Part shown: piece by piece, positions 5,509 through 58,933 of the stretch
How positions within the stretch are numbered: position 1 is the stretch's first letter
Layout: the number at the start of each line of letters is the position of its first letter
From: Phycisphaerales bacterium
Lineage (GTDB): Bacteria; Planctomycetota; Phycisphaerae; WQYP01
Reading direction: 5' to 3'
Assembly: GCA_009781185.1 (NCBI GenBank)
Contig: WQYP01000003.1
Coordinates: forward strand, 7,219 to 71,218
DNA: 64,000 bases
The notes under the pieces: model-generated
What the model was told of the DNA's origin: nothing
Seen by the model: only the letters and a program-made list of their open reading frames with translations
The model's database searches: none
Position numbers and translations under genes: made by a program

Positions 5509-8500
5509 ATGTCACAAGCAACTGCAACCACCGACACACATCCGCTCGTGGAACGCATCACCCGGATGCGCAGCCGCGTACGGACGGTGGTCGGGCTTTT
5601 CGGCGGCGGCGTACTGGTGAGCGCCGGCGTTGGGGGGATGGCGGGGTTGATGATGGGGGACTATTTGATTCATCTGTCGGCAATGCAGCGGCTTGTGCTG
5701 ATGATCATGTGGGTTATGGCTCTGGGCGCCATCGCATGGCGCGTTCTGATTCATCCGCTTTCCACGCGGCTCACGGATCAGTTCCTTGCCAGCCGTGTGG
5801 AAAACGTTCACAAAGATCTCGAAGACGAACTGATGTCCGCAGTGCATTTCATCCATGCGGGCACAACGAAAACGAACGCTCTCGCTGCACGGCACGTGGA
5901 CGCGGCGGCGGCCAAGACAGCGTCAATTCGGTTTGAAGAAGCGATAGATTTCCGCCGATCCGGCAAGGCGTTGGGGATTGCGGCGCTGGTCGTCGTGGTG
6001 ACGACGATGATTGTTGCCTTGAATCCAAATCTCGGGCGTATCGCTCTTTCACGCTGGTTTTCCGCCAGTCCACTGGATTGGCCGCGGTTTACTACAGTGA
6101 TGTTCGCATGGGGAACGGAAGGCAACAAACCACCTACGGTGCTGCCCATCGGCGAACAGCTTCTTGTGCAAGCCAAAGTGGTGCAGGGCGGCTCGCCATC
6201 GCAGCGAGTATACCTGCGTGCATGGGGTGATCATGAAAGTGCTCGAAGCGAACTGATGACGTACCAGCCGGCGATGAGTGGCGACAATGAATTCGTCTAC
6301 GAACGGACTCTCGAACCTCGTGGCGAACGCACCCTTTCTCTGAAAATCGAAGCCGGCGACGACACCGAGCAACCGCCCGTCAACATCCGCCTCGCCCCGC
6401 GACCGATCATCAACGAGCTCACGGCTTCGATCACGCCGCCGGATTATGTGCGAGATCTGAAGGATGCTTCGAAGCCGGCGCCTGCCGTCACGACCGACAT
6501 GATGATTCGGGAAGGCCGCGCTGTGGAGGGGGCGACGGTCAAGTTTCGCATTCATGCCACGAAGCCGTTCCTGTGCGACGATCGCGGGGAAAGGAGGGGG
6601 CCTGAAGTGAAGCTGCTCTCCGATGCAAAAGATGTCGATGTAAGTATTGGTTCCAGCCGTCGGCTTATTGACGCAAATACCGCAGAGATGACTTTCCAGG
6701 CGAAGGAGTCGTGGAATGCACGGATCATCATGCGAGATACCGACGGCTTCGAAAATCATGCGGGCGGTACCGTGCGACTGGTCGTGGTGCCTGATGGTTT
6801 GCCGTCCGTGGTGATCACCGAGCCGCGGCGTCTGAGCGATCGCAGTCCGACGGCGATGGTGAGCATTGTCGTGCAAGGAACGGACGATCTGGGGCTCGAC
6901 GGCGTGAAGCTCGTCGCCGAGAAGTACAACGCCAAACCCGGCGATGCTCCGGTTTTTGAGACGCCGCTTGCGTGGGCGGAATTAACGGTGGATCAAGCCT
7001 CCGGCAGCACTTCCGGACGGGCAAATTATCGGTGGGACCTCTCGCTGCTGAATCTGCAGCCGGAAGCCCGTCTGAGTTTTTATGCGATGGTGCAGGATAA
7101 CTACAGCGTCAACGGAACGCGTCATCCGTGGGTGAAATCGGGGGCGATGACGCTGCAGATTCGCAGCGCCAGCGACATCGAGCGCGAAGCTCGCCAGCAG
7201 CTCAACGACATCAAGGATCGTATCAAATCACTCAAGGCCGCAGAGGAAAAGAATCAAGGCCAGACGGACGTGATCAAGGCGGCTGCCGAAAAAACCGGCG
7301 TAACAACAGCACAGCAGAAAGAACAACTCGCCCAGCTTTCGCAGCAGGAAAGCCAACAAGCGTCCACCGCGATGTCCATTCAACAGAAACTCGAACAGAT
7401 TCGCGGCGATCTTGCGGAGAACAAACTCACCGATGGCGAACTGGCGAAGCTGGCACAAACAATTTCGCAGGGCATGAATGATATCGGTCAGAACGATATG
7501 CCCAAGGCCGCGAGTGAATTGGGCAAGGCGCACGACGCCGCGGGCAATCAGGAACCCGGCAAACAAAACGAACAATCAAAGTCCGAAGCGAAGCAAACCG
7601 CACAAGCCGCATCAAATGCAAGCCAAAAACAGGCCGAAGCGATCGCCAAGATGGAGAACATGATCGACCAGTTGGGAGCCGCAGGCGATTTGGCAGAGGC
7701 GCAACGGGTGCTCCGCGACATCAAGGCTCGGCAGGATAAGCTCAACACGGATACCAACCGCACCGCCATCGACACCCGCGGCAAAGACGTCAAAGACCTC
7801 ACACCCGATGAGAAAAAACGTCTCGATGCGTTAGCGAATCGCCAGCAGCAATTGCACCAGGAAACGCAAAGCGCCATCAAGGACATGGAGGATTCAGCGC
7901 GTCGGGCAAAACAGAATGATCCGGCTGCTTCGGAAAGCCTCTCGCAGGCTGCCAGGTCCGGCAGAGAAAACGACGTCCCCGGCAAACAGGACGAAGCATC
8001 AAAAAATATCAGCAAAAACCAGACAGCAACCGCGTCTGGCAATCAGGGCCAGGCGAGCCAGGGCCTGCAACAAATGCTCGACGAACTCAACAAGAACGAA
8101 AAGCGAGCGCTGGAGCAATTGCAGCGGCAACTTGCGGACCTGATCAGAGAAGTCAAAAAACTCAAGAACGACCAGGAGCAAATCAAAGACGACACAGAAG
8201 CGGCGGGAGGAAGGGGGGGGAAAAACTCGAAACTCGAAACTCGAAACTCGAAACTGGGTGACCGCCAGGAAACGCTGCACATGAACACGATCGTCGTGCA
8301 AAAAAAGGCATTGAACACGAAGGACGGCAAGGAGGCTGCGGCAGATATCCGTGACGCTGCTGAGCAGATGGGGCTTGCCGCCGCGGCTCTCTACGGCAAC
8401 AAACAGCCGGCCGCGATTGCTCCGGAAGACAATGCCGTCGCCTGCCTGGCTGAGGCCATTAAAAAACTGGAAAATCTCAAGGAAAAAGTCGACAACGCAT

Positions 8501-9159
8501 TGAAAACAAACGATCTCGCGGAGTTCATCAAAAAGTATGAAGCGATCCGCGATGCCCAGATCAACATGAAGAAAACGACGGATAACGTCGAAAGTCGACG
8601 GCTGGCATCGGAGGAAAAGGAGTTCGACCACCTGGGTCTCAAGCAACTCGCGGACCTCGTTAAAACGCAGCAGGATCAGATCGACCGGATCGCCAAACTC
8701 TCCAGCGATGAAAAACTCAAGGAATATGACATCGTCGTATGGATGAATGGCCAGATCATCGAGGCAATGGGCACCAGCAAAACCGGCCTGAGCAAGGCAC
8801 AACTCGGTCGCCAAATCGCCTCCGCCCAGCAAACCGCGATCGACCGCATCCAGGACATTATCGACGCTCTCAAAGAGGAAAAGAATAAGTCGGAGTTCGA
8901 ACAGGATTCCAACGGCGGCGGCGGCAGCGGAAACGGCGGTCAGCAAAAGCGGCCCCTGCTGCCGCCGATAGCGCAGATGAAGCTCATCAAAGCCATGCAG
9001 AAAATCGTCATCACGCAAACAGTGAATGTCGATAAGGCCCTGCAAACCGCGACGTCAGAATCCGAAAAAACGCGACTAAAAGAAGAAGCCGCCAAAATCG
9101 GCAAAACGCAGGGCGACCTCAAAGCGGTGGTAAAAAAGACCATCGAGCAGATGCAGTAA
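5509..9159 (+). CDS. Large membrane protein (1216 aa): N-terminal TM helices, a beta-rich middle, and a ~600-aa Q/K/E-rich coiled-coil C-terminal half. DUF4175-like, Bat-operon associated.
   Basis: Long ORF with high GC3. Purine-rich aggtga 8 nt upstream of the ATG. Two N-terminal hydrophobic segments. C-terminal half is low-complexity and coiled-coil. Contains an in-frame G8 tract and a heptamer array at 8211-8249. Confidence 0.6.
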   Translation: MSQATATTDTHPLVERITRMRSRVRTVVGLFGGGVLVSAGVGGMAGLMMGDYLIHLSAMQRLVLMIMWVMALGAIAWRVLIHPLSTRLTDQFLASRVENVHKDLEDELMSAVHFIHAGTTKTNALAARHVDAAAAKTASIRFEEAIDFRRSGKALGIAALVVVVTTMIVALNPNLGRIALSRWFSASPLDWPRFTTVMFAWGTEGNKPPTVLPIGEQLLVQAKVVQGGSPSQRVYLRAWGDHESARSELMTYQPAMSGDNEFVYERTLEPRGERTLSLKIEAGDDTEQPPVNIRLAPRPIINELTASITPPDYVRDLKDASKPAPAVTTDMMIREGRAVEGATVKFRIHATKPFLCDDRGERRGPEVKLLSDAKDVDVSIGSSRRLIDANTAEMTFQAKESWNARIIMRDTDGFENHAGGTVRLVVVPDGLPSVVITEPRRLSDRSPTAMVSIVVQGTDDLGLDGVKLVAEKYNAKPGDAPVFETPLAWAELTVDQASGSTSGRANYRWDLSLLNLQPEARLSFYAMVQDNYSVNGTRHPWVKSGAMTLQIRSASDIEREARQQLNDIKDRIKSLKAAEEKNQGQTDVIKAAAEKTGVTTAQQKEQLAQLSQQESQQASTAMSIQQKLEQIRGDLAENKLTDGELAKLAQTISQGMNDIGQNDMPKAASELGKAHDAAGNQEPGKQNEQSKSEAKQTAQAASNASQKQAEAIAKMENMIDQLGAAGDLAEAQRVLRDIKARQDKLNTDTNRTAIDTRGKDVKDLTPDEKKRLDALANRQQQLHQETQSAIKDMEDSARRAKQNDPAASESLSQAARSGRENDVPGKQDEASKNISKNQTATASGNQGQASQGLQQMLDELNKNEKRALEQLQRQLADLIREVKKLKNDQEQIKDDTEAAGGRGGKNSKLETRNSKLGDRQETLHMNTIVVQKKALNTKDGKEAAADIRDAAEQMGLAAAALYGNKQPAAIAPEDNAVACLAEAIKKLENLKEKVDNALKTNDLAEFIKKYEAIRDAQINMKKTTDNVESRRLASEEKEFDHLGLKQLADLVKTQQDQIDRIAKLSSDEKLKEYDIVVWMNGQIIEAMGTSKTGLSKAQLGRQIASAQQTAIDRIQDIIDALKEEKNKSEFEQDSNGGGGSGNGGQQKRPLLPPIAQMKLIKAMQKIVITQTVNVDKALQTATSESEKTRLKEEAAKIGKTQGDLKAVVKKTIEQMQ

Positions 9160-9369
9160 CGCGGGCGTCTCGCCCTCGTGTCATCAGAGCCGCGACCGCA
9201 AGGTCGCCTCGCGATTATCAGAGCTGCGAGCGTAAGCTCGCCTCCTACGCCCGAAGGGCGTCAACATACGTAGCCGGGGGCAACGCCCCCGGTGAACATA
9301 CCCCCACAGACGTCATGCCCTGAAAGGGCACGACATCTTGTGATACCCATAACGAAACGGAACCATGGC
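9160..9369 (+). repeat. Array of five or more short GC hairpins with GNRA/tri-loops between the large coiled-coil gene and the next gene.
   Basis: gcgacc-GCAA-ggtcgc; gcgagc-GTAA-gctcgc; cgccc-gaa-gggcg; ccgggggc-aac-gcccccgg; tgccct-gaa-agggca. The first two units begin with cagagccgcga, like the CDS-inserted family. Confidence 0.55.
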
Positions 9370-18412: not shown

Positions 18413-18506
18413 CAAGGAGCACCACGTGGCAACGCGGTGGTGATTGGGAATGCAAGGACAAACCTCCGCGTTACCACGCGGTGCTCCTTGTCACTTTGTC
18501 ATCTTG
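18413..18506. terminator. Long imperfect inverted repeat (~25-bp stem) between convergent genes; candidate bidirectional terminator. Flanked by gacaagg direct repeats that extend into both stop codons.
   Basis: caaggagcaccacgtggcaacgcggtgg … ccgcgttaccacgcggtgctccttg. Direct repeats gtgacaaggtgacaagg on one side and gtcactttgtcatcttgtcac on the other. Confidence 0.5.
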
Positions 18507-20807
18507 TCACTTGGTTTTCGGTGCGTTTCGCCAGGCGAAGAGGACGAGGTTGCGGGCGAGGGCGGTGGCGGATTCCTGGGTGTAGCCGTCGATGCCCCAG
18601 ATGTTGGTGCCGAGGAGGCCGCTGGTGAGGTCTTCGGGCGAAAAGAAGATGGCGGCGCGGCGATTGATGTTCATGTATTGGATACGCGGGACGGTGATGA
18701 AACCGTGCTGGAGGGTCCAGGAACGGCGGAAGGCGACTTCGGAAATGTTCAAGGCGTCGGGTGAAAAGACGCCGGTGTAGAGGGTGTAAGTCGAGGGGAC
18801 GATTTTGAGCGGGGAATCGGGGAAGGCGGTTTTGAGGGCGGCGGCGGCAGAGGTGGCGAAGGGCTCCTTGCCGCCGAGGGCTTCGACGAAGAGCGTGCCG
18901 CCGGCGTTGACGTAGTCGCGGAGAGCTTGGGTTTCTTCGGGGGTAAGCGCGAATTTTTCGGTGCCGGCGAGATGGGCGAGCGCGGGCATCGGAGTGAGCT
19001 TGGGGAGGTCGAGGATGGGGAGGGATTTAAGGGTGAGATCGGTGTTGGCGCGGAGGGCCATGATGCGTGAGAGCCGCGGCCAGGCGCCGGGCTCGGGGTC
19101 CCAGTTGGCATTATTTTGGAGACGGACGACAGTGACCTGCCGACCGGGCGGCGTGAGAGGCGGAGCGACGGCGAGTGTTTGGAGGCGACTGCGAAGACCT
19201 TCTTTACCCGCGACATAAAACAGGAGATTCGCGGGAATGTCCCAGGCTTCGGTCCGTGAACGGTTCACGGATTGCCATGCGGCACCGAGGTCCTGCGGAC
19301 AGTGGATCCAGAGTTCGCGGATGCCGTTGCTGAGGCCGTAGAGTTTGGGAACGCTGGGGATGTTGCCTCGGATGGTGAAGATGGGGTGATCGGGCGGCAG
19401 TTCCCGGAAGGTCGCGTTGTTGTTGGGGGAGAGGCGGATTTGTGAAGCGTAAGTGGTCATGGCGGCGGTGAAGTCCTTGGAGTCGCCGTCGGCAACGGAA
19501 AAGATGACGCCGCCGTAGTTGATGAACTGGCGGAGTTTGTCGACATCGTCGGGAGTGAAGCCGGGGTCCTTGGAGCCGGTGATGAGGAGGACGGGCGCTT
19601 CGAGCCAATCTTCGGGGAAGGAGGTGATGGGGACGGATTGCCAGTTGAGGTGGCGTTCGTATTCACGGGCGAGATAGGAGTGTAGGTTGGCGGCGTCTCT
19701 GGGGCGCGCGTTCCATGGGCCGTCGTATTGGAGCTTGTTCATGACGACCGGAGCGCGTCCGCGGCTGAGGATGAGGATGGCGTAAGCGGTGGAACGCGGG
19801 TCGTTGGAGCCGGTGAATTGAGAGCGGAAGGAGCCGTCTTTGCTGTTCTGGCGTTTGAGGATGTTGACGGCGATGTGGCGGTACCAGTCGTATTGCCCGA
19901 AAAACTTGGATCCGCTGGCGAGGCCTGCGCGTTCGACGCCGTAGAGGTAGTAGAAGTCTGCGGAGTCCGGATCGAAGTTAGCCAGGAGAGCGGAGAGTCC
20001 GTCATTGATCGCGTCGCTGCGGCGAGGTTCCAAGGCGGTGGAACGATTGAGAAATTCATCGCAGACGTAGAGGCTGGCGATGCCGGCGGCGGTCATGCTC
20101 TTGGTGGGAGACTCGCTGGACCTGTAGCCCCAGCCCCTGGCGCCCTGGGCAGATTTCCAGAATTCGCTGGTTTCTTTCCAGTAGTTGGGAGCGAACATGG
20201 AGATATTGACACCGGAATCGGCAGCCGCCCAGACGGCAAGGAGAGCGTACTGGCTGTTGGAGCCGTCGCAGACGTTGCCATCGGAGCCGTCGAGGTGGTA
20301 GGTGTAACCGCCGGTCTTGGTGCGTCCCTTGGCGAGCTTGGAGGCGCAGCGTGTGAGAGCGGCTTTGACTTCGACGGTGGCTGGGAGCTGGGAAAGAGCA
20401 AGAGCCTGAAGGGAAGTGTGGTAGGTCTGGTTGGAATCGTATTGTTGGAGGATTTCGACGAACGTTTTGAGAGGCTCGTCGCGAATACTCAGACGCCGGT
20501 CCTTGAGATTGGAGCCTACGTAAAGGAGTGAATAGGTTTCCAGGAGGGCTTCGCCGTTGTCTGTGATGCAGTCAAACTTGGAGCGCTGGGGGTGCGATTG
20601 GTAGTCGAGGAGTTTCTGGTTGAGGTCTTTGAGGAGGTAGTCGATGCCGCCGGAGATGGCGGAGACGACTTGCTCGTCGGTGAGGGTTCGAGGCGTGAGA
20701 TTGGCAGGGAGAGAAGGAGCGGTTTGGGCGCGGGAGGTGGGTGCAAGGAGGGCGAGGAGAGTGAGCAGGAGCATGCCCAGAAAGACTCGGGAGTGAGGGG
20801 GGGACAT
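18507..20807 (-). CDS. Secreted large protein with N-terminal prenyltransferase-like repeats and DUF4159/ThuA-like domains.
   Basis: Signal peptide MSPPHSRVFLGMLLLTLLALLAPTSRAQ (the ORF is open to 20840; the second Met is preferred). GATase1-like/DUF4159 segments (PVLLITGSKDPGF…, GGTLFVEALGG…). Confidence 0.5.
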   Translation of the reverse strand: MSPPHSRVFLGMLLLTLLALLAPTSRAQTAPSLPANLTPRTLTDEQVVSAISGGIDYLLKDLNQKLLDYQSHPQRSKFDCITDNGEALLETYSLLYVGSNLKDRRLSIRDEPLKTFVEILQQYDSNQTYHTSLQALALSQLPATVEVKAALTRCASKLAKGRTKTGGYTYHLDGSDGNVCDGSNSQYALLAVWAAADSGVNISMFAPNYWKETSEFWKSAQGARGWGYRSSESPTKSMTAAGIASLYVCDEFLNRSTALEPRRSDAINDGLSALLANFDPDSADFYYLYGVERAGLASGSKFFGQYDWYRHIAVNILKRQNSKDGSFRSQFTGSNDPRSTAYAILILSRGRAPVVMNKLQYDGPWNARPRDAANLHSYLAREYERHLNWQSVPITSFPEDWLEAPVLLITGSKDPGFTPDDVDKLRQFINYGGVIFSVADGDSKDFTAAMTTYASQIRLSPNNNATFRELPPDHPIFTIRGNIPSVPKLYGLSNGIRELWIHCPQDLGAAWQSVNRSRTEAWDIPANLLFYVAGKEGLRSRLQTLAVAPPLTPPGRQVTVVRLQNNANWDPEPGAWPRLSRIMALRANTDLTLKSLPILDLPKLTPMPALAHLAGTEKFALTPEETQALRDYVNAGGTLFVEALGGKEPFATSAAAALKTAFPDSPLKIVPSTYTLYTGVFSPDALNISEVAFRRSWTLQHGFITVPRIQYMNINRRAAIFFSPEDLTSGLLGTNIWGIDGYTQESATALARNLVLFAWRNAPKTK

Positions 20808-21084
20808 GGATGGGGTCCTTTCGCTGATGTAGTGTAGCATGCGCCCCCGCCACCCCGCAAAGCGGGGTCGCTACCTGCATGTCGTGCGGGTGCATCCGCC
20901 AATAGTGGCAATTCCGAAAAAATGTCCGTAGCGACCCCGCTTTGCGGGGTAGCGGTGGGGGAAAATATTGGATACGCCCGGAATTGCCACTCATTCAGGA
21001 TGCACCCATGTCGTGCTAAACCCACGCGGCCTAGACCCACTCCCTCGAAAGCTCTAAGATATCCGTCTGAAAGGATTCTTAGCC

Positions 21085-23092: not shown

Positions 23093-25117
23093 TTATTCAA
23101 GCGTTGGGGCGAAATGTTGCCAGAAAAGTTCAAGGGTGAGCAGGGCGAAGAGGCGGTGGGTGTGGTCGCGAAGAGCGGTGTGGTGTTCGTGGAGGAGGCG
23201 TTCGATGATTTGGGGTTGTAGATAGTTTCTCGTAAAGGATTGTTGCGAGAGGAGCAGATCGGTGAGCGGTGCGCGCAGGTCGCCCCCCCCCTGATTGTTA
23301 AACCATTGGCCGATGGGGACGCCGAAGCCTTTTTTGCGGCGGTGGAGGACGGCGGGTGGGAGATCGTTTGCGAAGAGTTGGCGGAGCGGGGCCTTTCCTT
23401 GGCCGTTGTGGATGAGAGCGGAATCGGGAAAGGAGTTGCCCAGTTCGACGATGCGGTGGTCGAGGAAGGGGGAGCGGACTTCGAGGGCGTCGCCGCTTGC
23501 TGAGCACATGGAGGCGGAGTCAACTTTCCAGAGAACGTCGCCGGGGAGATATTCGGATTGGTCGCGGAGCATGGCGAGGCGGAGCGGAGAAACATCATCC
23601 GGAAGACCGTACTCTTCGGGAAGCGGGAAGTAATCCAGCACCGGCTCGCCCATAAGTTCTTCGATAAATGGGCGTGGGAAAATGTCGACGAGGCGAGTGT
23701 ATTGTTCGGAGGGAATCTTGGATTTGGCGGCGGCGGCGAGGCGGCGGTAACGCTCTCTTTTGGAAAGAGAGCCCAAAGGGGAGGATTGGGGGAGAAATTT
23801 AACGAGGGGGCGGAAGCGGTTGAGGAGAATCATGGCGCGGTAGCGATCGTAGCCGGCGAAGAGTTCGTCGGCACCGTCGCCGGAGAGAGCGACGGGGGCC
23901 CTCCCCCCTACTTGGCGGGCGGCTCGGGAGAGGTGGTAGGTGGGGAGGATGGAGGAGTCGGCGAAGGGTTGGCCGAGGGATTTTTGCATGAGGAGACTGA
24001 GCGTGGCGAAAACGTCTTGCCTGGCGTGGACGGTGAGTTGGGTGTGGCGGGATTGGATTTTTTGTGCGACGGCCTGGGCGTATGGAGATTCGTCGAAGTC
24101 GGACTCTGTAAAGCCGACGGAGACGGTTTGGATGGGATCGCCGCCGGCTCTTTGGACGGCATCCTGGGCGAGCGTTGCGATGATGGAGGAATCGATGCCG
24201 CCGGAAAGGAAACAGGTGATGGGTGTATCGGCGATGAGTTGCGAGGAAACGGCAAGAGTGAGATTCTCGCGAAGATTTTCGATTTTCGATTTTCGATTTT
24301 CGATTTTTGATGTGGGTGTCCAGTAGCGGTCGCCGTCGAGAAGGTCATTTTGGAGGCGGAGCCAAGCGCCGGGGAGAAGTTGGTTCACGTCGCGGAAGAT
24401 GGTTTGCGGAGCGGGGAAGTAGCCAAGCAGAAGGTAGAGAGCGATTTGTTCTTTGGGGACGCGGCGGGGGACTTCGGGCCAGGCGAGGACGGAGGGGATG
24501 GTGGAGCCGAAGACAAGGCCGTCTTCGAGAATGGCGTAGAAGAGCGGTTTTTGGCCCATGCGATCGCGGGCGAGGAAAAGGGTGTGTTTCTGCCCTCCCC
24601 CTTGTGCCATCGGAGCCGCGACCGTAAGGGAGCGACCCCGCGGTAATGCGTCGGGAGAGCCGGTCGCTCCCTCACGGTCGCGGCTCTGATAGTCTGCGCT
24701 GCGTGTGTCCCAGATGGCGAAGGCGAACATGCCCAAGAGTTTGGTGGGGAGGTCGGTGCCCCACTGCTCCCAGCCGTGGACGAGGACTTCGGTGTCGGAA
24801 TGGTCGGATTTGAAGATATGTCCGTGGGATTGGAGTTCGCGGCGGAGTTGTGCGTGGTTGTAGATTTCGCCGTTGAAGACAACATGGACATTATTGGCTT
24901 CGTTAGCCATGGGTTGGTGGCCGCCGGAGCGGTCGATGATGGCGAGACGGGAATGGAGGAGTGCGGCGTGATTGTCGGCGAAGAGGCCGTGGCCGTCGGG
25001 ACCGCGATGAGCGATGGCTTGCGACATAGCCATGAGCGGTGCGAAACTGGAGGGGCGGGGGCCCCAGGGGGGCGGGCGGGAGGAGAGGTATTTGATGATG
25101 CCGGCGATGCCGCACAT
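23093..25117 (-). CDS. asnB: Asparagine synthase (glutamine-hydrolysing).
   Basis: N-terminal MCGIAGI Ntn-amidotransferase start; PP-loop FLSGGIDSS; 674 aa. Carries two in-frame foreign inserts: the palindromic element at 24608-24690 and the gattttc heptamer array at 24274-24309. Confidence 0.85.
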   Translation of the reverse strand: MCGIAGIIKYLSSRPPPWGPRPSSFAPLMAMSQAIAHRGPDGHGLFADNHAALLHSRLAIIDRSGGHQPMANEANNVHVVFNGEIYNHAQLRRELQSHGHIFKSDHSDTEVLVHGWEQWGTDLPTKLLGMFAFAIWDTRSADYQSRDREGATGSPDALPRGRSLTVAAPMAQGGGQKHTLFLARDRMGQKPLFYAILEDGLVFGSTIPSVLAWPEVPRRVPKEQIALYLLLGYFPAPQTIFRDVNQLLPGAWLRLQNDLLDGDRYWTPTSKIENRKSKIENLRENLTLAVSSQLIADTPITCFLSGGIDSSIIATLAQDAVQRAGGDPIQTVSVGFTESDFDESPYAQAVAQKIQSRHTQLTVHARQDVFATLSLLMQKSLGQPFADSSILPTYHLSRAARQVGGRAPVALSGDGADELFAGYDRYRAMILLNRFRPLVKFLPQSSPLGSLSKRERYRRLAAAAKSKIPSEQYTRLVDIFPRPFIEELMGEPVLDYFPLPEEYGLPDDVSPLRLAMLRDQSEYLPGDVLWKVDSASMCSASGDALEVRSPFLDHRIVELGNSFPDSALIHNGQGKAPLRQLFANDLPPAVLHRRKKGFGVPIGQWFNNQGGGDLRAPLTDLLLSQQSFTRNYLQPQIIERLLHEHHTALRDHTHRLFALLTLELFWQHFAPTLE
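24608..24690. repeat. Palindromic element (family 'cagagccgcgaccgtNagggagcgac') inserted in-frame in asnB.
   Basis: ggagccgcgaccgtaagggagcgacc…ggtcgctccctcacggtcgcggctct. Translated on the minus strand as …QSRDREGATG…GRSLTVAA…. Confidence 0.8.
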
Positions 25118-25128: not shown

Positions 25129-26295
25129 TTAGTGTTTATAAGCATTGAAGCGTTGGGGATCAACATGCCAGCCGAGGCCGGGCGTGGTGGGAATTTGGAG
25201 TTTGCCGTTTTTGATTTGGAAATCGAAAATGTCGGTGCGGAGGGGGTTGGGGTTGATGTCCCATTCGCAAAGAGGCGGTGCGTTGGCGGCGGAACAGCCG
25301 GAGGCGAGGTGGAGAGAGGCGGCCTGGCCCAGAGCGCTGCCGAGGTAGTGGGGGATGACTTTTTTGTTCCGGCCTTTGGCGAGCGGGATCAGATCGACGG
25401 CTGCGATCGGAGGGCAATTCTTCGTGATGTCGGGTTGCAGAATGTCGACGGGGAAGTCGGCGAGTTGGGCGAGGGTTTGGGGATCGCCACAGTTCACCCA
25501 GACGTTTTCGCCGGCGGAGAGCGGGACGCTACGGAGCCACCCCCCTTTTTGCAGAGCGGGATAGTGCGATTCTTCGTCGGCGCGGAGGGCCTCTTCGAGC
25601 CAGCGAACGTTGTGGTCCTTGAGGATCGGAAGCCACTCGGCGGCTTCGGCGGCGGTCCAGTGGCGATTGGTGTCAATCGCTATCTGAGCCCCCCCCCCCC
25701 TATCACCACCGAAATGCTTTTCGAGGGTTTTGATGTTGGCGAGGTCTTCGGCGCCGAAGCCGACCTTGAGCTTGAAGATGCGAACGCCACGTTCGAGCAT
25801 CGCGTCGATCTCTTTCATCGGCAGCGGCGAGTTGATGCCGGAGGCGTAGATTTCGACCTCTTTCGCTGGGTTTGCGGGGGGGGAGAACCAGAGCTGATTC
25901 ATGGGGACGTTTTTGGTTTTCGCTTCGAGGTCCCACAGGGCGAGTTCGACGGCACAGAGTTCCGCGATGAGCGAACCGACATTGTTGGCCTGAATGGCAG
26001 GACCGACGAAGGCATTGAACATTTGCATCATGAACTGGCGGACCCCTCCCCTCTCCTCCACCACCTCGCGCCCTTGCAGGTAGGGAAAGTAAGCCTGCTG
26101 AAAAGCGGCGAGGCGTTCGAAAGGAGACCAGACAGGGAAATTGATCCACGATTCTCCCCAGCCCCACCGGTCACCGTCATCTCGAAGCCCGATGAAAATA
26201 GCATGACGCTGCCCCATGACGCCCCAGGAAGTCTTAATGACGCGATCGGAGGCGGCACGAAGATGGTGAATGGCGGTGTTGGTGATGGTGAACAT
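25129..26295 (-). CDS. Enolase-superfamily enzyme (mandelate racemase/muconate lactonizing enzyme family; dipeptide-epimerase/OSBS-like).
   Basis: KLKVG, …IAIDTNRHWT…, WLEEAL and SAGENV motifs consistent with MR/MLE metal ligands. The ORF extends to 26367, but the start at MFTITN avoids overlap with rnd. Confidence 0.55.
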   Translation of the reverse strand: MFTITNTAIHHLRAASDRVIKTSWGVMGQRHAIFIGLRDDGDRWGWGESWINFPVWSPFERLAAFQQAYFPYLQGREVVEERGGVRQFMMQMFNAFVGPAIQANNVGSLIAELCAVELALWDLEAKTKNVPMNQLWFSPPANPAKEVEIYASGINSPLPMKEIDAMLERGVRIFKLKVGFGAEDLANIKTLEKHFGGDRGGGAQIAIDTNRHWTAAEAAEWLPILKDHNVRWLEEALRADEESHYPALQKGGWLRSVPLSAGENVWVNCGDPQTLAQLADFPVDILQPDITKNCPPIAAVDLIPLAKGRNKKVIPHYLGSALGQAASLHLASGCSAANAPPLCEWDINPNPLRTDIFDFQIKNGKLQIPTTPGLGWHVDPQRFNAYKH

Positions 26296-31865: not shown

Positions 31866-32380
31866 AGAGGACTCTCACTTCAATTCAGCTTCCCAAGCGG
31901 GAAGCAAAAACGCCAAAGGGAACGACAAGCCACCGAAAACTCGCTATTGTCAGCGAGATTTCGAACGTTGCTCTCGTTCCCTCTTTTGTCTTGAACGTCC
32001 CGAACTCAGTTCATGAGCTGTCCGGGCTGATGATGTAACATGGGCATCCTGCCCGCAAAACGCTCCCTGACGGTCGCGTTTCGGATTGGTTGCCGCGTCT
32101 CGAATTCGTGGGGAAAAATCAAATAATTAATGTTAAACTGGGGGGGGGGGGCAAGTTGGATAATTTGACCAAGGAAGTCTGACAATATTTTTCGCGATTC
32201 ATCGCGGCCGGAGAAAAACGCCGAGAAAATGTCGCAATTTTGCGTCATCATTGAGCTTACGCTCACCCTTGCCAACCAATACCCTCGCGCAACCGCCACA
32301 CGACAGCACGCGACATGTTCCCTATACCACAGATTTCGGGAAAAACAAGAATATTTTATTTTTTTTGCATCGTAAGCTCA

Positions 32381-36320: not shown

Positions 36321-36731
36321 ATGCAGAGAAACCTTTCGTCTCACGCGGTCGGTCTTTTCCGCCTGTTACGGAACATCCGCAGCAAGCCGAAGTCACCCGC
36401 GCCGATCGCACGGCGGGCGCCCGCTGAGCGAGTGCCGATAGGCGCTCTGAAGACCCAGAGGGGAAACGAGTAAGTATAGCGGAGAGAGAGAGTTGGGGAA
36501 AGCGAGATGAAAAGAGCGGACTCGTAAAATTTGTAAAATGGGTGAAAGTCGTAAAATGCGTGGAGAGGGGGCGGAGCACCGCATGGTAATGCGGTGGTTG
36601 AATACCATGAGGCGGCCAAACCACCGCATTACCCTGCGGTACTCCCAAAGATGCAATCTTACGATACGGCTCTGATGATTTGCGGGACAATGCGTGGACG
36701 GCTATGGTTGCGTATATGAGGTGAATGGCTT

Positions 36732-38672: not shown

Positions 38673-39881
38673 ATGGATAAGGATGTTGTGGTGACGAACT
38701 TGGATGTACGGCCGTATGTGGAGACGCTCTTTGCAAGGGCGTTGGCGGAGGAGGCGTCGGATATTCATGTGGAGCCGACGGCAGATGGGGCGGAAGTGCG
38801 GTTGCGGGTGGATGGGCTGCTTCAGACGATTGATCGGATGACGGGGGAAATGGGGCGGAGTACGGTGTTGCGGCTGATGGTACTGGCACAGTTGTTGACG
38901 TATCGATTGGACATTCCGCAGGAAGGGCGGGTGACGTGGGAGGTGGGGCATCGGAGCCGCGACCGTGAGGGAGCGACGGGTGCCGATTCTGAGTCGCACG
39001 GTCGCTCCCTGACGGTCGCGGCTCTGAACTTCCCTGAGGAAATGGGAGGGAAGCGGATTGATTGTCGGTTAGCGATTATGCCCACGGCGCATGGGCTGCG
39101 GGCGGTGGTGCGGATGCCGGCGGATTTGGTGCAGCCCAAGTCGCTGGGAAGTTTGGCGTTGCCGGCGGCGGTGATGGGGGCGTTGGAGCGGTTTGCGAAG
39201 CACGACCAGGGAATGCTGCTGGTGACCGGACCGGCGGGGTCGGGCAAGACGACGACGATTTATGCATTGCTGGAGCATATCGCGGCGGGAACGGGGGGGG
39301 AGGCGAGCGGGTTGTCGATTATCAGTTTGGAGGATCCGGTGGAGCGGCTGTTGCCGGGGGTGACGCAGATCGAAGTGACGCCGCATGGGCAGTTGACGTA
39401 TGAGCGGGCGCTCAAGTCGATCTTGCGGCAGGATCCGCAGGTGCTGATGCTCGGGGAGATTCGGGATGTGGCGACGGCGTCGATCGCGGTGCAGGCGGCG
39501 TTGTCGGGACATCGGTTGATTGCGACGCTGCACGCCGGTGAACCGGCGATGGCGCTGGCGCGGCTGCTGGAGATGGGTATTGAACCTTATCAGTTGACCA
39601 GTAGTTTGTTTGGGATTTTGAGTCAGCGGCTGTTACGGAAGCGATCGTCAGCCTCCGCAAGCCGTTATCGTGGGCGGGTGCCGGTGGCGGAGTTCGCACA
39701 GCTTGATACGGACGTACGTGCGGCGGTCTTGCAACGAGCAGATGCAGATTCTTTGAAAAATAGATTTGCCCAACAATCCGGCTATGTTACGATGCGAACT
39801 GTAGCAGAAGATTTGGTGGCACGCGGTGTGACGGACGAGGAGGAAGTGCAACGGGTTCTGGGTTTAGTACAGCGATCGTGA
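38673..39881 (+). CDS. GspE/PilB-like secretion ATPase (short form lacking the N1 domain).
   Basis: Walker A GPAGSGKTTT; Asp/His boxes; …EGRV…RIDCRLAIMPTAHGLRAVVRM. The palindromic element is inserted in-frame at 38950-39028. Confidence 0.7.
   Translation: MDKDVVVTNLDVRPYVETLFARALAEEASDIHVEPTADGAEVRLRVDGLLQTIDRMTGEMGRSTVLRLMVLAQLLTYRLDIPQEGRVTWEVGHRSRDREGATGADSESHGRSLTVAALNFPEEMGGKRIDCRLAIMPTAHGLRAVVRMPADLVQPKSLGSLALPAAVMGALERFAKHDQGMLLVTGPAGSGKTTTIYALLEHIAAGTGGEASGLSIISLEDPVERLLPGVTQIEVTPHGQLTYERALKSILRQDPQVLMLGEIRDVATASIAVQAALSGHRLIATLHAGEPAMALARLLEMGIEPYQLTSSLFGILSQRLLRKRSSASASRYRGRVPVAEFAQLDTDVRAAVLQRADADSLKNRFAQQSGYVTMRTVAEDLVARGVTDEEEVQRVLGLVQRS
38950..39028. repeat. Palindromic element of the same family, in-frame in the gspE-like gene.
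   Basis: ggagccgcgaccgtgagggagcgac gggtgccgattctgagtcgcac ggtcgctccctgacggtcgcggctct, encoding …HRSRDREGATG…GRSLTVAA…. Confidence 0.8.
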
Positions 39882-41185: not shown

Positions 41186-42634
41186 TTGGTCCAGGACAGC
41201 CAAACGCCTCTGGAATACCAGACGCCAGTGCGGGTTGTGGCGTCCGACTTGCCGCTTTGGCAGCAGGCGCTGATGCTGCTGTTCGTGTGGGCACCGCTGG
41301 GGCTTGTTTTCGTGGCGATCGTGGGGGTGGTGATGGGAATGTCGTGCAGTTATATGGTGGGGCAGGTCGGGATGCCGATCGGGGTGCTGTTCTGTGCTTA
41401 CGCGATTTACCGGATGCAGCGTGCGCGGCGACGACGGCGGGCCATGGCGATCTTGTCATACGTGGAAACAGCGACGCGTCTCAATTTGTCGTTGAATGAA
41501 TACCTGCTGGCGGCGGAATTGAGCGAGCGCGGTGCGACGCGGGAAAGGTTAAGCGACCTGCGGCGACGGTTCATGAGCGGGGCCTCAATCTCCACAGCGT
41601 TATACGAAGCGGTGCCGGAGATGCCCGCTTCGATCATCGCCACCGCACGCGTCGGCGAATCGCTCGGACAGGTACAACCCACATTGCGGCGACTGGTCAA
41701 CGAGGTCGCCAGACCCACCCTTCCGCCCAATGAACGCATGCCGTTTTACTGGTTTTACGGCATCGGCTTGTGCGTGGCGGTCTTTAACCTCGCCGCATGG
41801 CTCATGGTGTACATCATGCCAAAGTTCAAGGAGATCTTCCGCGACTTCAGCTCCCGCGGCACCGGCGTGACCCTTCCACCGGCGACGGCAAACTTGATCG
41901 TTTTTTACGATCGCATGGGGGACATGGGAGTGGTGTTCTTAGTGATCGAGGCCGTGGTATTCCTGGGACTTGTCGGATGGCTGCTGGAGCGGGCGTTCAC
42001 GTTGCGGCGTGAATCGCAACGGCGTTTGGCGCTGATCGACAAAATGCTCTGGAACTTGCCGGTGCTGGGACGGCTGAATCGGGCAAGATCGATGAGCGAC
42101 ATTTGCAACGTGCTGGCGGAAAGCACGCGTGCAGGCATACCGCTGCCGCAGGCGCTGGAGCGTGCCGAGGATCTGAACATCAACAACGAAGCGAAGCGTC
42201 AGGTGAAGTTGTGGCAACAGGGCGTGACGTCCGGTCAATCGCCGGCGAAAGCGGCACAGGCGGCGAAAATGCCGGAACTGCTCGTCGGACTCATCAATCC
42301 CGCACAATCACAAAGCGGGCATGACGATCAGAGCCGCGACCGTGAAGGAGCGACAGGTGCTATGGAGGAGACGCTCAAGCGTGAACTCCGGGGTCGCTCC
42401 CTGACGGTCGCGGCTCAGAACCTGCATGCCGTCACCAACGTGTTTGAATTCCTGGCACGCTATTACCGCGGACAGTTCTCGCGGCTGATGATCACGCTGC
42501 AAGCCGCAAGCGAGCCGCTCCTGGTCATCGCCCTGGGCATCATGGTGGCGTGGATGACCATGACGGTGATCTCGCCGGTCGCGGCGCTGGTGCAAGCGAT
42601 CATCAAGGTATACTGGGGAGGGGACGTCTTATGA
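41186..42634 (+). CDS. Second GspF/PilC-like platform protein paralog.
   Basis: T2SSF-like repeats. The palindromic element is inserted in-frame at 42328-42418. Confidence 0.55.
   Translation: MVQDSQTPLEYQTPVRVVASDLPLWQQALMLLFVWAPLGLVFVAIVGVVMGMSCSYMVGQVGMPIGVLFCAYAIYRMQRARRRRRAMAILSYVETATRLNLSLNEYLLAAELSERGATRERLSDLRRRFMSGASISTALYEAVPEMPASIIATARVGESLGQVQPTLRRLVNEVARPTLPPNERMPFYWFYGIGLCVAVFNLAAWLMVYIMPKFKEIFRDFSSRGTGVTLPPATANLIVFYDRMGDMGVVFLVIEAVVFLGLVGWLLERAFTLRRESQRRLALIDKMLWNLPVLGRLNRARSMSDICNVLAESTRAGIPLPQALERAEDLNINNEAKRQVKLWQQGVTSGQSPAKAAQAAKMPELLVGLINPAQSQSGHDDQSRDREGATGAMEETLKRELRGRSLTVAAQNLHAVTNVFEFLARYYRGQFSRLMITLQAASEPLLVIALGIMVAWMTMTVISPVAALVQAIIKVYWGGDVL
42328..42418. repeat. 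Palindromic element of the same family, in-frame in the second gspF-like gene.
   Basis: agagccgcgaccgtgaaggagcgac …35-nt loop… ggtcgctccctgacggtcgcggctca, encoding …QSRDREGATG…GRSLTVAA…. Confidence 0.8.
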
Positions 42635-43032
42635 CGATGCGAAATGAGAGACGAGCGGTGCGGCGGAGCCGCGGGTTTTTCGCCATGGAAGCGGCCTGGT
42701 CGCTGGGGCTGGCGCTGCTGCTGTTGATGATCATGACCGTGATGGTCATGCAGCAGAATAAGGCGGAAATGAAGTTATCACTGATTCGCAGCGCCTCACG
42801 GGCGACGGAAACGGCACTGCTGGAATTGAAGGCGGGCAAGCCTTTGCCTGCGGGCTTTCAACTCGAAAAACTGCCGGATAAGGCGCCGCAAGGCTATGCA
42901 TGGGTTCGCGTGACCGGGCAATCCAACGGCAACGAGCGAACGGAAAAAGTATACCGTGAACGATGCTCGCTGGTGGGACTGACACCTTCCGAGCCGCGAC
43001 CGTCAGGGAGCGACCCCGGAGGTGCGCGATGA
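42631..43032 (+). CDS. Small membrane protein in the pilus/secretion cluster; possible minor pseudopilin or assembly component.
   Basis: ATGA overlap with the upstream gene. RGFFAMEAAWSLGLALLLL hydrophobic N-terminus. Its C-terminal 30 nt are a half palindromic element. Confidence 0.35.
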   Translation: MTMRNERRAVRRSRGFFAMEAAWSLGLALLLLMIMTVMVMQQNKAEMKLSLIRSASRATETALLELKAGKPLPAGFQLEKLPDKAPQGYAWVRVTGQSNGNERTEKVYRERCSLVGLTPSEPRPSGSDPGGAR

Positions 43033-43514
43033 AAACGACCGCGAAATATCGCCAAGCACACGGCTACATTCTCACGGAAATGCTCATCGCGGTGGCGATT
43101 ATGGGAGTACTGGCAGTGCTGGTGGGCGATCTGTTCATGATCTCGTTCGGATCGATGCGGAAAGCGAGTTCGCGTGATAATCTTCTGTATCGCATGGACG
43201 CGGCAATCGGATCGCTGCGACGCGACACATGGGCGGCAGAAAAAATCAGCATGGACGCTGCAAACCACGTCGATCTGAAGATGCCGTCAGGGGAGCAGGT
43301 ATCGTGGCGGATGTCGGAGAAGGGCGTTCTCTCTCGCACGCTGCAGCGGAAAGGCGAGGCGGCACAGAATCAGACATGGCCGGAATTGCCGGAGATACGG
43401 TTTTTGCTTTCGTCGGACGGAGCGCTGCTGGAACTCAGCGTGCGTTCCGCCCCCGGCCAGGACGAATCGCTCACGCTGGTAAGTCAATCGATGCTGCAGG
43501 GGAGGAAGCGATGA
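43029..43514 (+). CDS. Type IV pilin/pseudopilin-like protein.
   Basis: Prepilin N-terminus …AHGYILTEMLIAVAIMGVLAV (G-Y/F-T-L-x-E motif). Confidence 0.6.
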   Translation: MKTTAKYRQAHGYILTEMLIAVAIMGVLAVLVGDLFMISFGSMRKASSRDNLLYRMDAAIGSLRRDTWAAEKISMDAANHVDLKMPSGEQVSWRMSEKGVLSRTLQRKGEAAQNQTWPELPEIRFLLSSDGALLELSVRSAPGQDESLTLVSQSMLQGRKR

Positions 43515-43992: not shown

Positions 43993-44150
43993 CTGGGCAA
44001 GGGGTGTGATCATCTTTTGTGGCAAATGGCGAAAATGGTTGAAAATCAGAGCCGCGAGCGTAAGCTCGCGCAGTGGTGATCACAATCGCACGGCGCGAGC
44101 TTACGCTCGCGGCTCTGATTTGCCACAAAAGATGGCCACACCCTGGGCAA
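43993..44150. repeat. Large nested palindrome (~65-bp arms); MITE/REP-like intergenic element.
   Basis: ctgggcaagg…catcttttgtggcaaat…cagagccgcgagcgtaagctcgcg // cgcgagcttacgctcgcggctctgatttgccacaaaagatgg…cttgcccag. The core shares the cagagccgcga start with the CDS-inserted palindrome family. Confidence 0.7.
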
Positions 44151-57091: not shown

Positions 57092-57140
57092 CCGTGGCCA
57101 TTCACATCATCTGTCTGTGTCTGTCCGTGTCTGTCTGTGG

Positions 57141-58874
57141 CTAATTTATATTGCCAATCGCCGCCGCCATTTCTCGAATTCGCTTTACCATTCCCGCCAG
57201 TCCATTCCGCCGTTGCGACGTAATAAACTGTTCCAGTCCGATTTGTCCGAAGAACCCTTCCACATCAAACCTCGCCACGTCGCCAGCCTTTTGCCCTGAA
57301 TAAATTTTTTCCAGCACCGCGATCAGCCCCCGCACAATCTCCGCATCCGCATCGGCCACGAATTCAAATACATCTTTCGTCCCCGGCCTTTTCCGCCCCA
57401 CCATATACACCTCGCTCATGCACCCCCGCACCCGCGGCGAAACCCGCTTGAGCATCCCCCACAACCTCGGCAACTCCTTCCCCAACTCCAACACATACTC
57501 GCTCTTCGCCTCTCGATCTTCCAGCAGCGCAAAGTCCGCCGTCAACGCCTCCGCCGCCGCTTCCACCCCCATCGCCGTCGCCACCGGATACTCAATCTCC
57601 TGGCTTCTGGCTTCTGGCTTCTGGCTTCTCTCCCCCGCGATCTTCTTCAATCCCTCGACAAGCGTATCGACTTCTGTCCGCGTATTATAAAACGCAAACG
57701 ATGCCCGCGCCGTCGCCATGACGCCGAACCGTTCCATCACCGGCATACAGCAGTGATGCCCCGTCCTCACACAAATCCCCTCACGATCCAATTTCACCCC
57801 GATATCCATCGTTGAGACTGCATCCATCACAAACGAAATCACCGCACTTTTCCGTTTCGCCGTCCCCACAATTCTTAATCCCGGCACCTCCCGCAGACGC
57901 TCCGTTGCATACTTCAGCAATTCTTGTTCATACGCTCCAATCCACTTCAGCCCTAAATCTTGCAAATAATCAATCGCCGCCCCCAGCCCCGCCACCCCCG
58001 CCACGTTCGGCGTTCCCGCCTCAAATTTCGCCGGCAACTCCGCGTACTCCGTCTTCTCAAACCGCACCGACGCAATCATGTCTCCCCCCCCCTGATACGG
58101 CGGCATCTTCTCCAGCAACGCTCGCTTCCCATACAATACTCCAATCCCCATCGGCCCCATCAACTTGTGTCCGCTGAACGCATAAAAATCACAATCCAAA
58201 TTTTGCACATCCGTCACCCCATGCGCTACCCACTGCGCCCCGTCAATCAGCACCATTGCCCCCCTCGCATGTGCCATCGCAACGATCTCCTTCACCGGAT
58301 TCACCGTACCCAGCGAATTACTGACATGATTCACTGCGACCATCTTCACCCACCCGCTCCTTAGCAATTCCTCCAAAATATCCAGCCGAATCTCCCCCTC
58401 GCCGGTAATCGGAATCACTTTGAGCTTCGCCCCCGTCGCTTCGCACACCATTTGCCACGGCACAATGTTCGAATGATGCTCCAAGTGCGAAATCACCACC
58501 TCATCCCCCACTTTCAAGTTTGCACGTCCCCAGCTCGACGCTACCAGATTAATCCCCTCGGTAGTTCCTTTCGTGTAAACAATCTCTGCTATCTCCGCCG
58601 CGTTGATAAAGTTGCGAACTTTTTCCCGTGTCTCCTCGTATACCGCCGTCGCCTCCTGGCTCAGCTTATACACCCCCCGATGCACGTTCGAATTCTGTTC
58701 CCGGTAAAACCGTTCCTCCGCCTCCATCACCGCCCGCGGCTTCTGTGCCGTTGCCGCGTTATCCAAATATATCAACGCCCGTCCATCCTCTCGCCTCCCC
58801 AAAATCGGAAAGTCCTTCCGCACCTTCTCCACATCCCACGCTACCGCACTAAAAATGCTCTCAATCGTACTCAT
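57141..58874 (-). CDS. sufS: Cysteine desulfurase SufS fused to a C-terminal SufE domain.
   Basis: Class V aminotransferase motifs (…FSGHKLMGPMGIGVLY…, …RTGHHCC…). C-terminal 140 aa …RVRGCMSEVYM…ADADAEIVRGL…QRRNGL… match SufE. The linker carries an in-frame ggcttct x3 array. Confidence 0.75.
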   Translation of the reverse strand: MSTIESIFSAVAWDVEKVRKDFPILGRREDGRALIYLDNAATAQKPRAVMEAEERFYREQNSNVHRGVYKLSQEATAVYEETREKVRNFINAAEIAEIVYTKGTTEGINLVASSWGRANLKVGDEVVISHLEHHSNIVPWQMVCEATGAKLKVIPITGEGEIRLDILEELLRSGWVKMVAVNHVSNSLGTVNPVKEIVAMAHARGAMVLIDGAQWVAHGVTDVQNLDCDFYAFSGHKLMGPMGIGVLYGKRALLEKMPPYQGGGDMIASVRFEKTEYAELPAKFEAGTPNVAGVAGLGAAIDYLQDLGLKWIGAYEQELLKYATERLREVPGLRIVGTAKRKSAVISFVMDAVSTMDIGVKLDREGICVRTGHHCCMPVMERFGVMATARASFAFYNTRTEVDTLVEGLKKIAGERSQKPEARSQEIEYPVATAMGVEAAAEALTADFALLEDREAKSEYVLELGKELPRLWGMLKRVSPRVRGCMSEVYMVGRKRPGTKDVFEFVADADAEIVRGLIAVLEKIYSGQKAGDVARFDVEGFFGQIGLEQFITSQRRNGLAGMVKRIREMAAAIGNIN

Positions 58875-58933
58875 ACTCTTATTCTACCATATCTGTGTCT
58901 GTCAGTGTCTGTCTGTGGCCAATTCCTGTCTCA

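Follow-up and report, generated by a model that had tools for sequence, protein, structure and literature searches.

The DNA analysed here is a stretch of 64,000 nt from contig WQYP01000003.1 of a Phycisphaerales bacterium. We call this stretch the window, and all coordinates are window positions unless a locus is named. At 23093..25117 on the minus strand it encodes an AsnB-family glutamine amidotransferase of 674 aa, which starts with MCGIAG and contains LSGGIDSS. Two repeats lie inside this gene. The first is a palindrome at 24609..24690 that is similar to the REPINs, which belong with the repetitive extragenic palindromic (REP) sequences; palindromes are given without a strand throughout. 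The second is a heptamer microsatellite at 24274..24311 on the minus strand, which is (GATTTTC)5.4 on the plus strand and (GAAAATC)n on the gene strand. A sequence-only reading of this DNA had described both as independent foreign inserts in an intact frame, with the palindrome at 24608-24690. The open reading frame (ORF) is indeed uninterrupted over all 674 codons, and the palindrome was located correctly within one base. We consider it likely that this is one functional gene with two unrelated kinds of repeat, a copy of a REP/REPIN-like palindrome and a heptamer microsatellite that arose in place.

It is worth considering the host gene first. Its product is identical to MCL2645521.1, an 'asparagine synthase-related protein' from a Phycisphaerales metagenome-assembled genome (MAG) with FWD61_ locus tags. 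Pfam finds an N-terminal class-II glutaminase domain (GATase_7, E = 3.5e-39; GATase_6, E = 2.2e-37) and a C-terminal Asn_synthase domain (PF00733, E = 8.7e-78). The nucleophile Cys comes straight after the initiator Met, as in class-II (Ntn) amidotransferases, and the PP-loop SGGxDS is present. The protein was aligned with 21 homologues from the Phycisphaerae. More than 150 columns are invariant across these 22 sequences, including R57, N82-G83-E84, D108 and S305-G306-G307-x-D309-S310 of the PP-loop, and Cys2 is nearly invariant. An AlphaFold2 model made from this alignment has a mean pLDDT (predicted local distance difference test) of 81.8 and a pTM of 0.87. Its TM-score, normalised to the target, is 0.79-0.82 to 1ct9 and 7ylz. 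Small Gly-rich extras (GGR, QGGG) are missing from most homologues.

The exact identity of the enzyme is less simple than its domains imply. It passes the generic NCBIfam model for glutamine-hydrolysing asparagine synthases (TIGR01536, 401 bits vs a cut-off of 267), but it is below the cut-off for 'asparagine synthase B' of the E. coli type (NF006949, 236 vs 499). The top-scoring model is the PEP-CTERM amidotransferase TIGR03108, yet this is also below threshold (470 vs 817). The closest solved structures are the hydroxyamidotransferase TsnB9, which is the best match, and E. coli AsnB. Calling it an essential housekeeping enzyme, as had been done, goes further than these matches allow. In the window rnd and an enolase-superfamily gene come before the asnB-like gene, and on the contig of a relative the asnB-like gene directly follows rnd. 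The comparison with the closest orthologue, L001, which shares 83% of its amino acids, gives a dN/dS of 0.135 for 590 codons, a value that spans all the time since the two diverged and not the time after the insertion alone. Since the catalytic motifs and the rnd neighbourhood are kept and dN/dS has this value, the gene appears to be functional and conserved, with purifying selection acting on it. The protein with the insert has presumably kept its enzyme activity.

The palindrome has two arms of 29 nt (24609-24637 and 24662-24690) that are 93% complementary, with a loop of 24 nt between them (24638-24661). On the minus strand it corresponds to codons 143-170 (24608-24691, 84 nt), which encode YQSRDREGATGSPDALPRGRSLTVAAPM; the tryptic peptides that it encodes include EGATGSPDALPR and SLTVAAPMAQGGGQK. 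RNA folding of this region gives -66.7 kcal/mol (z = -8.5). The palindrome is missing from all 21 aligned homologues, among them the orthologue with 82% identity. Between FAIWDTR and TLFLARDR the window protein alone has about 30 additional residues, and the homologues have 0-13 residues there. In the DNA of L001 GACACACGA runs directly into ACACACATCCGAACCCTCTTC, and the window has a net gain of 105 bases, which includes the 82-nt palindrome. Because the low-confidence residues of the model (146-174, pLDDT <50) sit between two confident strands (133-137 and 179-184), the element is predicted to form an extra loop of ~28 aa at a beta-hairpin turn of the glutaminase domain, a turn that naturally varies in length. 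This loop (QSRDREGATG...GRSLTVAA) is probably hydrophilic and disordered. The insert is presumably transcribed and translated with the gene.

The gene is not the only host of this element. A search for the arm motif gave 7 occurrences in the window and none in 100 shuffles; depending on the search the count is 7-11, against 0-0.4 expected. Copy 2 (38951..39027) is in frame in the ORF of a GspE/PilB-like ATPase (38673..39881, plus strand) and encodes ...HRSRDREGATGADSESHGRSLTVAAL... there. Residues 93-124 of this protein have no counterpart in PilF (5oiu), and the best match to T2SSE picks up again at residue 124 (profile position 87). Copy 3 (42328..42419) is in frame in a GspF/PilC-like ORF (41186..42634, plus strand) and encodes ...DQSRDREGATGAMEETLKRELRGRSLTVAAQ... 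About 37 residues (~377-417) are surplus here relative to PilC (3jc8), and the best T2SSF match (residues 307-371, profile 2-69) stops just ahead of the copy. Both copies are extra segments relative to solved homologues, which is consistent with loop tolerance. The three copies share one reading frame, SRDREGATG...GRSLTVAA, and their lengths (82, 79 and 94 nt) differ by multiples of three. Each of the window's 3 full main-type copies lies inside a gene and in frame, and 3 of the 4 doublets there are intragenic. The palindrome in asnB had been called RPE-like, after the repeats of Rickettsia discussed below, and it is a copy of a dispersed element. Its presence in frame in the other two genes had gone unnoticed in the sequence-only reading.

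The copies in this MAG belong to a sub-family whose arms end in ...GAGCGACNGG. An exhaustive profile search found the element peptide, with a single full-length match each, in 3 more proteins, all of which are from this MAG: a BlaR1/M56 protein (P0145, FWD61_02510), a CitMHS_2 transporter (P0167) and a protein of 385 aa (P0146). This makes a total of six proteins with the element in frame. When related metagenomes were scanned for the sub-family, copies in frame turned up in the genes for ATP synthase subunit a (L123) and MnmE (L157). The left arm reads SRDR[EKQ]GAT in every intragenic copy. Because the copies sit in six proteins of the FWD61_ MAG as well as in AtpB and MnmE, in-frame residence in conserved genes is a recurrent property of the sub-family and not an oddity of asnB. 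It must be noted that the top 2 profile matches (P0143 and P0144) were discarded, as they are translated CRISPR arrays with FNSRPREGAT / VSTHAPARGR / FQLTPPRGGD repeats. Public 'proteins' of this kind are a trap for searches by element peptide. When the element peptide was used in a word-indexed protein search, the matches were just 22 short spurious ORFs, and the proteins of the window itself were not among them.

The anatomy of the family is simple. Each copy has two inverted arms of ~27 nt (TCNGAGCC-GCGACCGTNAGGGAGCG) with a variable loop between them, and the unit is the tag TCNGAGCC followed by CGCGACC-GTNA-GGGAGCG. Species-representative genomes were scanned, and at least 118 stretches carry the element; what follows on the hosts, the unit, the loops and the location of copies outside the window applies among the matches listed. 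The hosts are Planctomycetota (Phycisphaerae, Gemmataceae, Planctomycetaceae, Thermoguttaceae, Singulisphaera and Alienimonas), Acidobacteriota, Gamma- and Alphaproteobacteria, and Desulfobacteraceae MAGs. The conserved ~27-nt unit is T-C-[C/A]-GAGCC-GCGACCGT-N-AGGGAGCG-G-T. Conservation extends beyond the search pattern: of 242 arms, 237-242 have GA before GCC, and T-C-[C/A] comes ahead of that. The loops are 12-42 nt long and unrelated across genomes, and the free base N is identical in both arms in 70 of 121 copies. Most of the copies outside the window (118 loci) are intergenic, in short open stretches or beside gene ends. Units are found as solo arms, as inverted doublets and as a tandem arm array (L024, 29-nt spacing). 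The sub-family, as found in the window and the Ga012335x metagenomes, has a loose loop consensus, which suggests that the whole doublet is the unit that gets copied. The dinucleotide 'AT' flanks both sides in 10 of 13 sub-family copies, where it also extends the palindrome and is indistinguishable from a target duplication.

The window contains relatives of the full copies. An intergenic sister palindrome at 44038..44126 has the same termini (TCAGAGCCGCGA) and the arm hairpin GCGAGC-GTAA-GCTCGC. It is nested in a composite element (~43996-44140) with outer inverted repeats GGGGTGTG..TTTTGTGGCA / TGCCACAAAA..CACACCC. The same outer repeat and architecture, with a well-conserved loop, recur in many contigs of one metagenome (Ga0316217, loci L121-L159), and the MnmE copy has this composite architecture. 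Two tandem variant solo units at 9184..9241 (plus strand) lie just past the stop of ORF 5509..9159 and read TCAGAGCC-GCGACC-GCAA-GGTCGC and TCAGAGCT-GCGAGC-GTAA-GCTCGC. The variant units of the window share the tag TCAGAGCC, followed by a perfect hairpin that is either GCGAGC-GTAA-GCTCGC or GCGACC-GCAA-GGTCGC; these fold well (z = -3.4 and -2.9). A solo arm at 42988..43015 (plus strand) gives ORF 42550..43032 the C-terminus SEPRPSGSDPGGAR. The segment 42988-43032 provides the final 14 codons of that ORF and its stop, which overlaps the next ATG. Another solo arm is intergenic (32061..32078, minus strand), and further ones are at 43526 and 56339. A solo arm in codons 5-11 of a pseudopilin-like ORF (43512-43570, MKIWYRDRQGSRGFTLIAV) contributes the leader peptide.

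Other identities for the palindrome were considered. It is not an attC site, a CRISPR repeat or a terminator: there are no R'/R'' boxes, the spacing is irregular, there is no T-run and copies lie inside ORFs. A search of the whole window against Rfam at the gathering threshold gave no match. With a relaxed E-value the element itself gave only sub-threshold matches to eukaryotic miRNA hairpins, so it does not belong to a known RNA family. A literature search for the arm sequence returned no relevant paper.

A possible transposase is encoded in a Bryobacteraceae MAG (L083), where the ORF at locus positions 2426-2977 scores 27.3 bits against the Pfam model Y1_Tnp (cut-off 23) and has an HVH motif. 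It lies between two doublets of the palindrome family (2322-2403 and 2963-3047), a layout that is described for transposases associated with REPs. On this sequence and context the divergent IS200-like Y1 protein is a candidate for the mobilising enzyme of the family. Searching with it by tblastn did not find a second copy, and L083 is the only case of widely spaced inverted arm pairs that enclose a gene. An all-against-all BLAST of 1896 ORFs from the 118 loci listed found no transposase cluster that could be a recurrent neighbour, and no parent insertion sequence was found in the family loci searched.

We argue that the following scenario would account for these observations. The palindrome would be a non-autonomous REP/REPIN-like mobile hairpin. 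A Y1 transposase (HUH, IS200/RAYT-like) probably moves it in trans by acting on the hairpin. A copy that lands in a gene would normally destroy the gene and be lost with it. Copies would persist if their net length keeps the frame, if the frame through the element is open and if the site is a surface loop. The frame would tend to be open since most frames of the G+C-rich unit are free of stop codons. A surviving copy would then be translated as a hydrophilic loop, which is probably disordered. The heptamer array would have a separate history of replication slippage in place, before the split from the nearest orthologue. Since most family copies are open in 3-4 of the 6 frames, this selection filter is enough to explain the loop positions, and there is no sign of active loop targeting. 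The sequence-only reading proposed that the two elements either target loops or are tolerated only there. The alignment and the model do place them in a length-variable beta-hairpin turn (pLDDT <50) and a hypervariable interdomain linker. Tolerance fits these data, and targeting is not needed.

The scenario should be compared with systems that are already known. The Rickettsia palindromic element (RPE; Ogata et al. 2000) is, as summarised in PMC10969869 and PMC3733652, a set of palindromic repeats that lie in frame in many unrelated conserved genes. As far as those summaries describe it, the likeness is close. Both are short palindrome families in frame in unrelated conserved genes at sites compatible with the fold, here with the family peptide SRDR[EKQ]GAT...GRSLTVAA, and in both the host genes remain functional. 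There are also differences from the RPE as it is summarised. The host here is a G+C-rich Planctomycetota MAG and not a reduced intracellular alphaproteobacterium. The element is 79-94 nt long vs ~100-150, with conserved arms and a poorly conserved loop. Its arms are also present in several phyla, where they are mostly intergenic. The palindrome can be likened to the RPE by its behaviour and by description, which would make it an analogue rather than a member of that family.

The anatomy points elsewhere. REPs inside ORFs have been reported (Di Nocera et al. 2013, PMC3733652), and both REPs and MITEs (miniature transposable elements with inverted repeats) inside ORFs are listed for several bacteria (PMC3733652, PMC10969869). 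The REP/REPIN-RAYT system, in which RAYT is the associated tyrosine transposase (Nunvar 2010; Bertels & Rainey 2011; PMC3733652), has a similar unit of ~27 nt that is found solo, in inverted doublets and in tandem clusters. Like our family it is mostly extragenic in most genomes, with occasional intragenic copies, and the Y1 gene of L083 is flanked by doublets. The differences are a main unit that is a weak hairpin, a flanked Y1 transposase that is under the RAYT cut-off, and an intragenic fraction that is unusually high in the FWD61_ MAG. MITEs with coding capacity (ERIC/IRU, Delihas 2007; Coxiella QMITEs, PMC5896051; PMC10969869) are likewise small and non-autonomous with terminal inverted repeats, and they occasionally form in-frame ORF fusions. 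The nested palindromes with outer repeats in the Ga0316217 contigs and at 43996-44140 resemble them. However, the intragenic copies of the window have no outer repeats, and neither a target-site duplication nor a parent insertion sequence was identified. REP/REPIN is the best match in anatomy and MITEs are second. In short, the palindrome resembles an RPE in its behaviour and a REPIN in its architecture.

Several points weigh against a mobile REP-like element that is filtered by selection. The tag of the family is T-C-[C/A/G]-GAGCC (TCNGAGCC), and the described REP super-families have GTAG or CGTC (PMC3733652). The main unit CGCGACC-GTNA-GGGAGCG folds weakly on its own (z = -0.3 to -0.7). The Y1 protein of L083 matches the RAYT model weakly (18 bits vs a cut-off of 80), and a PDB sequence search with it found no solved relative. 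There is no transposase in the window, and ~0.8 Mb of flanks yielded only the one. The net excess over L001 in asnB is 35 aa and not 28, and the insertion boundaries are approximate. The time span covered by dN/dS, noted above, also counts here. Finally, 3 of 3 full main-type copies being intragenic in 64 kb is far above what a normal REP family should show under the filter model. It would take a bias of the sub-family toward genes to explain this excess.

The heptamer array is a different matter. Tandem Repeats Finder (TRF) assigns 24274-24311 a period of 7 with 5.4 copies, 96% matches and a score of 69. The array is made up of 4 perfect GATTTTC units (24274-24301), then GATTTTT and GAT. It encodes S270-L282, SKIENRKSKIENL, as the sequence-only reading wrote, in the linker of the glutaminase and synthetase domains. 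Its further claim that this array is a foreign insert does not survive the comparison with L001. That orthologue has ATCGAAA ATCGAAA ATTGAAA ATAGAAA at the same place, in the same codons and frame and with the same unit count, only more degenerate. The linker is 22 residues long in the window protein vs 21-22 in close homologues, so it has not been lengthened. This block of columns is hypervariable in the alignment, and one homologue (P0024) has 7-residue repeats of the KSQISNL type there, which may come from a different heptamer, judging from its protein alone. Residues 271-280 have a mean pLDDT of 65 in the model and form a lower-confidence linker into the first helix of the synthetase domain. 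Since L001 shares the site and the unit count and the linker is no longer than usual, the array appears to be an old microsatellite that was made in place and not an insertion.

The array is one of several. Perfect tandem repeats of at least 3 copies in the window have a period of 7 only (4 arrays; none with periods 4-6 or 8-12), and 30 shuffles of the window contain no perfect period-7 array. By TRF the units are of the GANTTTC and CTGGCTW types. A second in-frame array, (CTGGCTT)4.3 at 57600..57629 on the minus strand, encodes RSQKPEARSQE in the variable linker of a SufS-SufE fusion (ORF 57141..58874). A third, (AAACTCG)4.7 at 8223..8255 on the plus strand, encodes KNSKLETRNSKL in a 1216-aa ORF (5509..9159) in which Pfam finds no domain. 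The remaining arrays are intergenic or 5' of likely start codons. Whichever of the three frames of a strand is read, a heptamer repeat yields the same peptide of 7 residues, and the intragenic arrays are all in the orientation that gives charged, hydrophilic peptides. In loci L002-L119 (825 kb, mostly Planctomycetota) there are 11 perfect period-7 arrays vs 1, 4, 2 and 0 for periods 6, 8, 9 and 10. The phylum as a whole may share the heptamer bias, with a density roughly one fifth of that in the window. A literature search for heptanucleotide repeats in Planctomycetes returned nothing relevant. The SufS-SufE ORF at 57141-58874 (minus strand) is continuous over 577 aa; NCBI annotates only a 143-aa SufE (MCL2645548.1), while JGI and ENA have the full ORF. 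One can imagine that the fusion came from read-through of a heptamer-bearing spacer, but we reject this because the fusion is conserved across the Phycisphaerae.

Of the other ways to explain the repeats, the one that fares best is that the intragenic hairpin is kept for a function, either as mRNA structure (ribosome pausing, processing or stability) or as a DNA site for a host protein. The hairpins are highly stable (-61 to -71 kcal/mol, z = -6.7 to -8.6). The matching N noted above could mean that pairing or arm identity is maintained, and every full main-type copy in the window is intragenic. For REPs elsewhere, roles in termination, in the stabilisation of mRNA and in the binding of gyrase have been reported (PMC3733652). 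We still regard a function of this kind as unlikely. The host genes are unrelated to each other, close orthologues work without the insertion, no Rfam family matches, and the copies showed no fixed placement with respect to domain boundaries. The matching N may simply stem from the copying of whole doublets.

Another scenario is that the asnB-like gene is decaying into a pseudogene, or that it is a paralogue the cell can do without, and that its product no longer matters. Its NCBI name, which says only 'related', its scores under the cut-offs of the E. coli-type AsnB and PEP-CTERM models, and Gly-rich extras that are rare among homologues could be read in this way. It is hard to reconcile with 674 unbroken codons, kept catalytic and PP-loop motifs, the invariant columns, dN/dS, a confident fold outside the insert and a conserved position beside rnd. 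The element is also found in ATP synthase subunit a, MnmE and a GspE-like ATPase, and it is unlikely that all of these are dispensable. We judge this scenario very improbable.

Similarly, the heptamer array could be a contingency locus that switches the gene on and off by gain or loss of one unit. The unit is not a multiple of 3, four perfect copies and an imperfect fifth lie in an ORF, and heptamer tracts are specifically enriched in this genome. The over-representation of 7-nt arrays and the non-3 unit in an ORF do recall the short tandemly repeated repetitive (STRR) sequences of cyanobacteria and the contingency loci of Haemophilus and Neisseria (PMC2651432). However, the units here are GANTTTC and CTGGCTW, the phylum is a different one, and the arrays lie in linkers of metabolic enzymes. 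L001, at 17% amino-acid divergence, has the same unit number and codons and differs by substitutions instead of length, though this is a single comparison. The AsnB-like and SufS-SufE proteins are not encoded by surface or restriction genes that are typical of phase variation, and other heptamer arrays are intergenic. A switch of this kind is very doubtful.

The palindrome could also be an artefact of assembly or binning, namely a chimeric join induced by repeats. The source is a MAG, and short-read assemblers may collapse or misjoin repeats. Such a join would have to leave both flanks colinear with the same orthologue and restore the frame exactly. It would have to do so in 3 independent in-frame cases in one contig, with more in other contigs and assemblies, which makes an artefact highly improbable. 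Least credible of all is that the element is not translated, by ribosome bypass (as for the 'byps' of Magnusiomyces mitochondria or T4 gene 60) or by excision from the mRNA: a strong hairpin does lie within the coding sequence, and yeast mitochondria have mobile G+C-rich hairpins that are bypassed, but every intragenic copy examined keeps the frame and is free of stops, which bypassed or spliced inserts need not be, the three window copies have no matching take-off and landing codons beside them, and we know of no bypass mechanism for bacterial chromosomal genes. A translated copy of a REP/REPIN-like palindrome remains the explanation that we prefer.

The window contains other repeats that are separate from these. 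Homopolymer runs of G/C are 12 nt long at 10726-10737, 15812-15823, 25689-25700 and 32140-32151 and 13 nt long at 44592-44604. There are 11 such runs of at least 9 nt, with roughly one expected, and the enolase-superfamily gene that adjoins asnB contains the one at 25689-25700 in frame, as RGGGA. A decamer family of the CAGACAGACA type is found at 47976-48068, 57110-57139 and 58895-58917. At the first of these sites it makes a palindrome of 93 nt, the middle of which is an (AAATTCG)4.3 heptamer array. Two more palindromes (18395-18508 and 36573-36645) share the core GGAGCACCRC.TGG...GCGGTGGT, and one of them is preceded by (GACAAGGT)x3. Just 5' of a MATE transporter gene, two inverted-repeat pairs are interleaved at 20844-21007.

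Colonisation of genes by in-frame palindromes is usually framed as a peculiarity of Rickettsia plus scattered single cases. Here it is recurrent in a G+C-rich planctomycete MAG, and its hosts are central: an asparagine-synthetase homologue, ATP synthase subunit a, MnmE and secretion ATPases. We tentatively put forward a broader claim, which is plausible but not one that we would yet hold with confidence as a whole. This Phycisphaerales lineage would join Rickettsia as a second clear example of a selfish palindrome that systematically enters conserved genes in frame (at least 6 genes in one MAG and more in related metagenomes). The element would represent an undescribed REP super-family with the tag TCNGAGCC, present in at least 3-4 phyla and moved by a divergent Y1 transposase, and it would be a natural, recurrent source of new surface loops in essential proteins of free-living bacteria.

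We consider the finding to be of moderate interest, because the insertion recurs in central genes of a planctomycete of the free-living type and because the unit crosses phyla. There are practical effects on annotation. PGAP called the AsnB-like protein only 'related', and the element accounts for frequent spurious short ORFs (RSLTVAA, EPRPSGS, AATVRER) in Planctomycetota and Acidobacteriota. The microsatellites of period 7 only, which lie in interdomain linkers, are a separate and smaller curiosity. The palindrome points to a widespread REP family with a candidate transposase that is open to biochemical testing. It also offers a second system for the study of how and where proteins absorb ~30 random residues.

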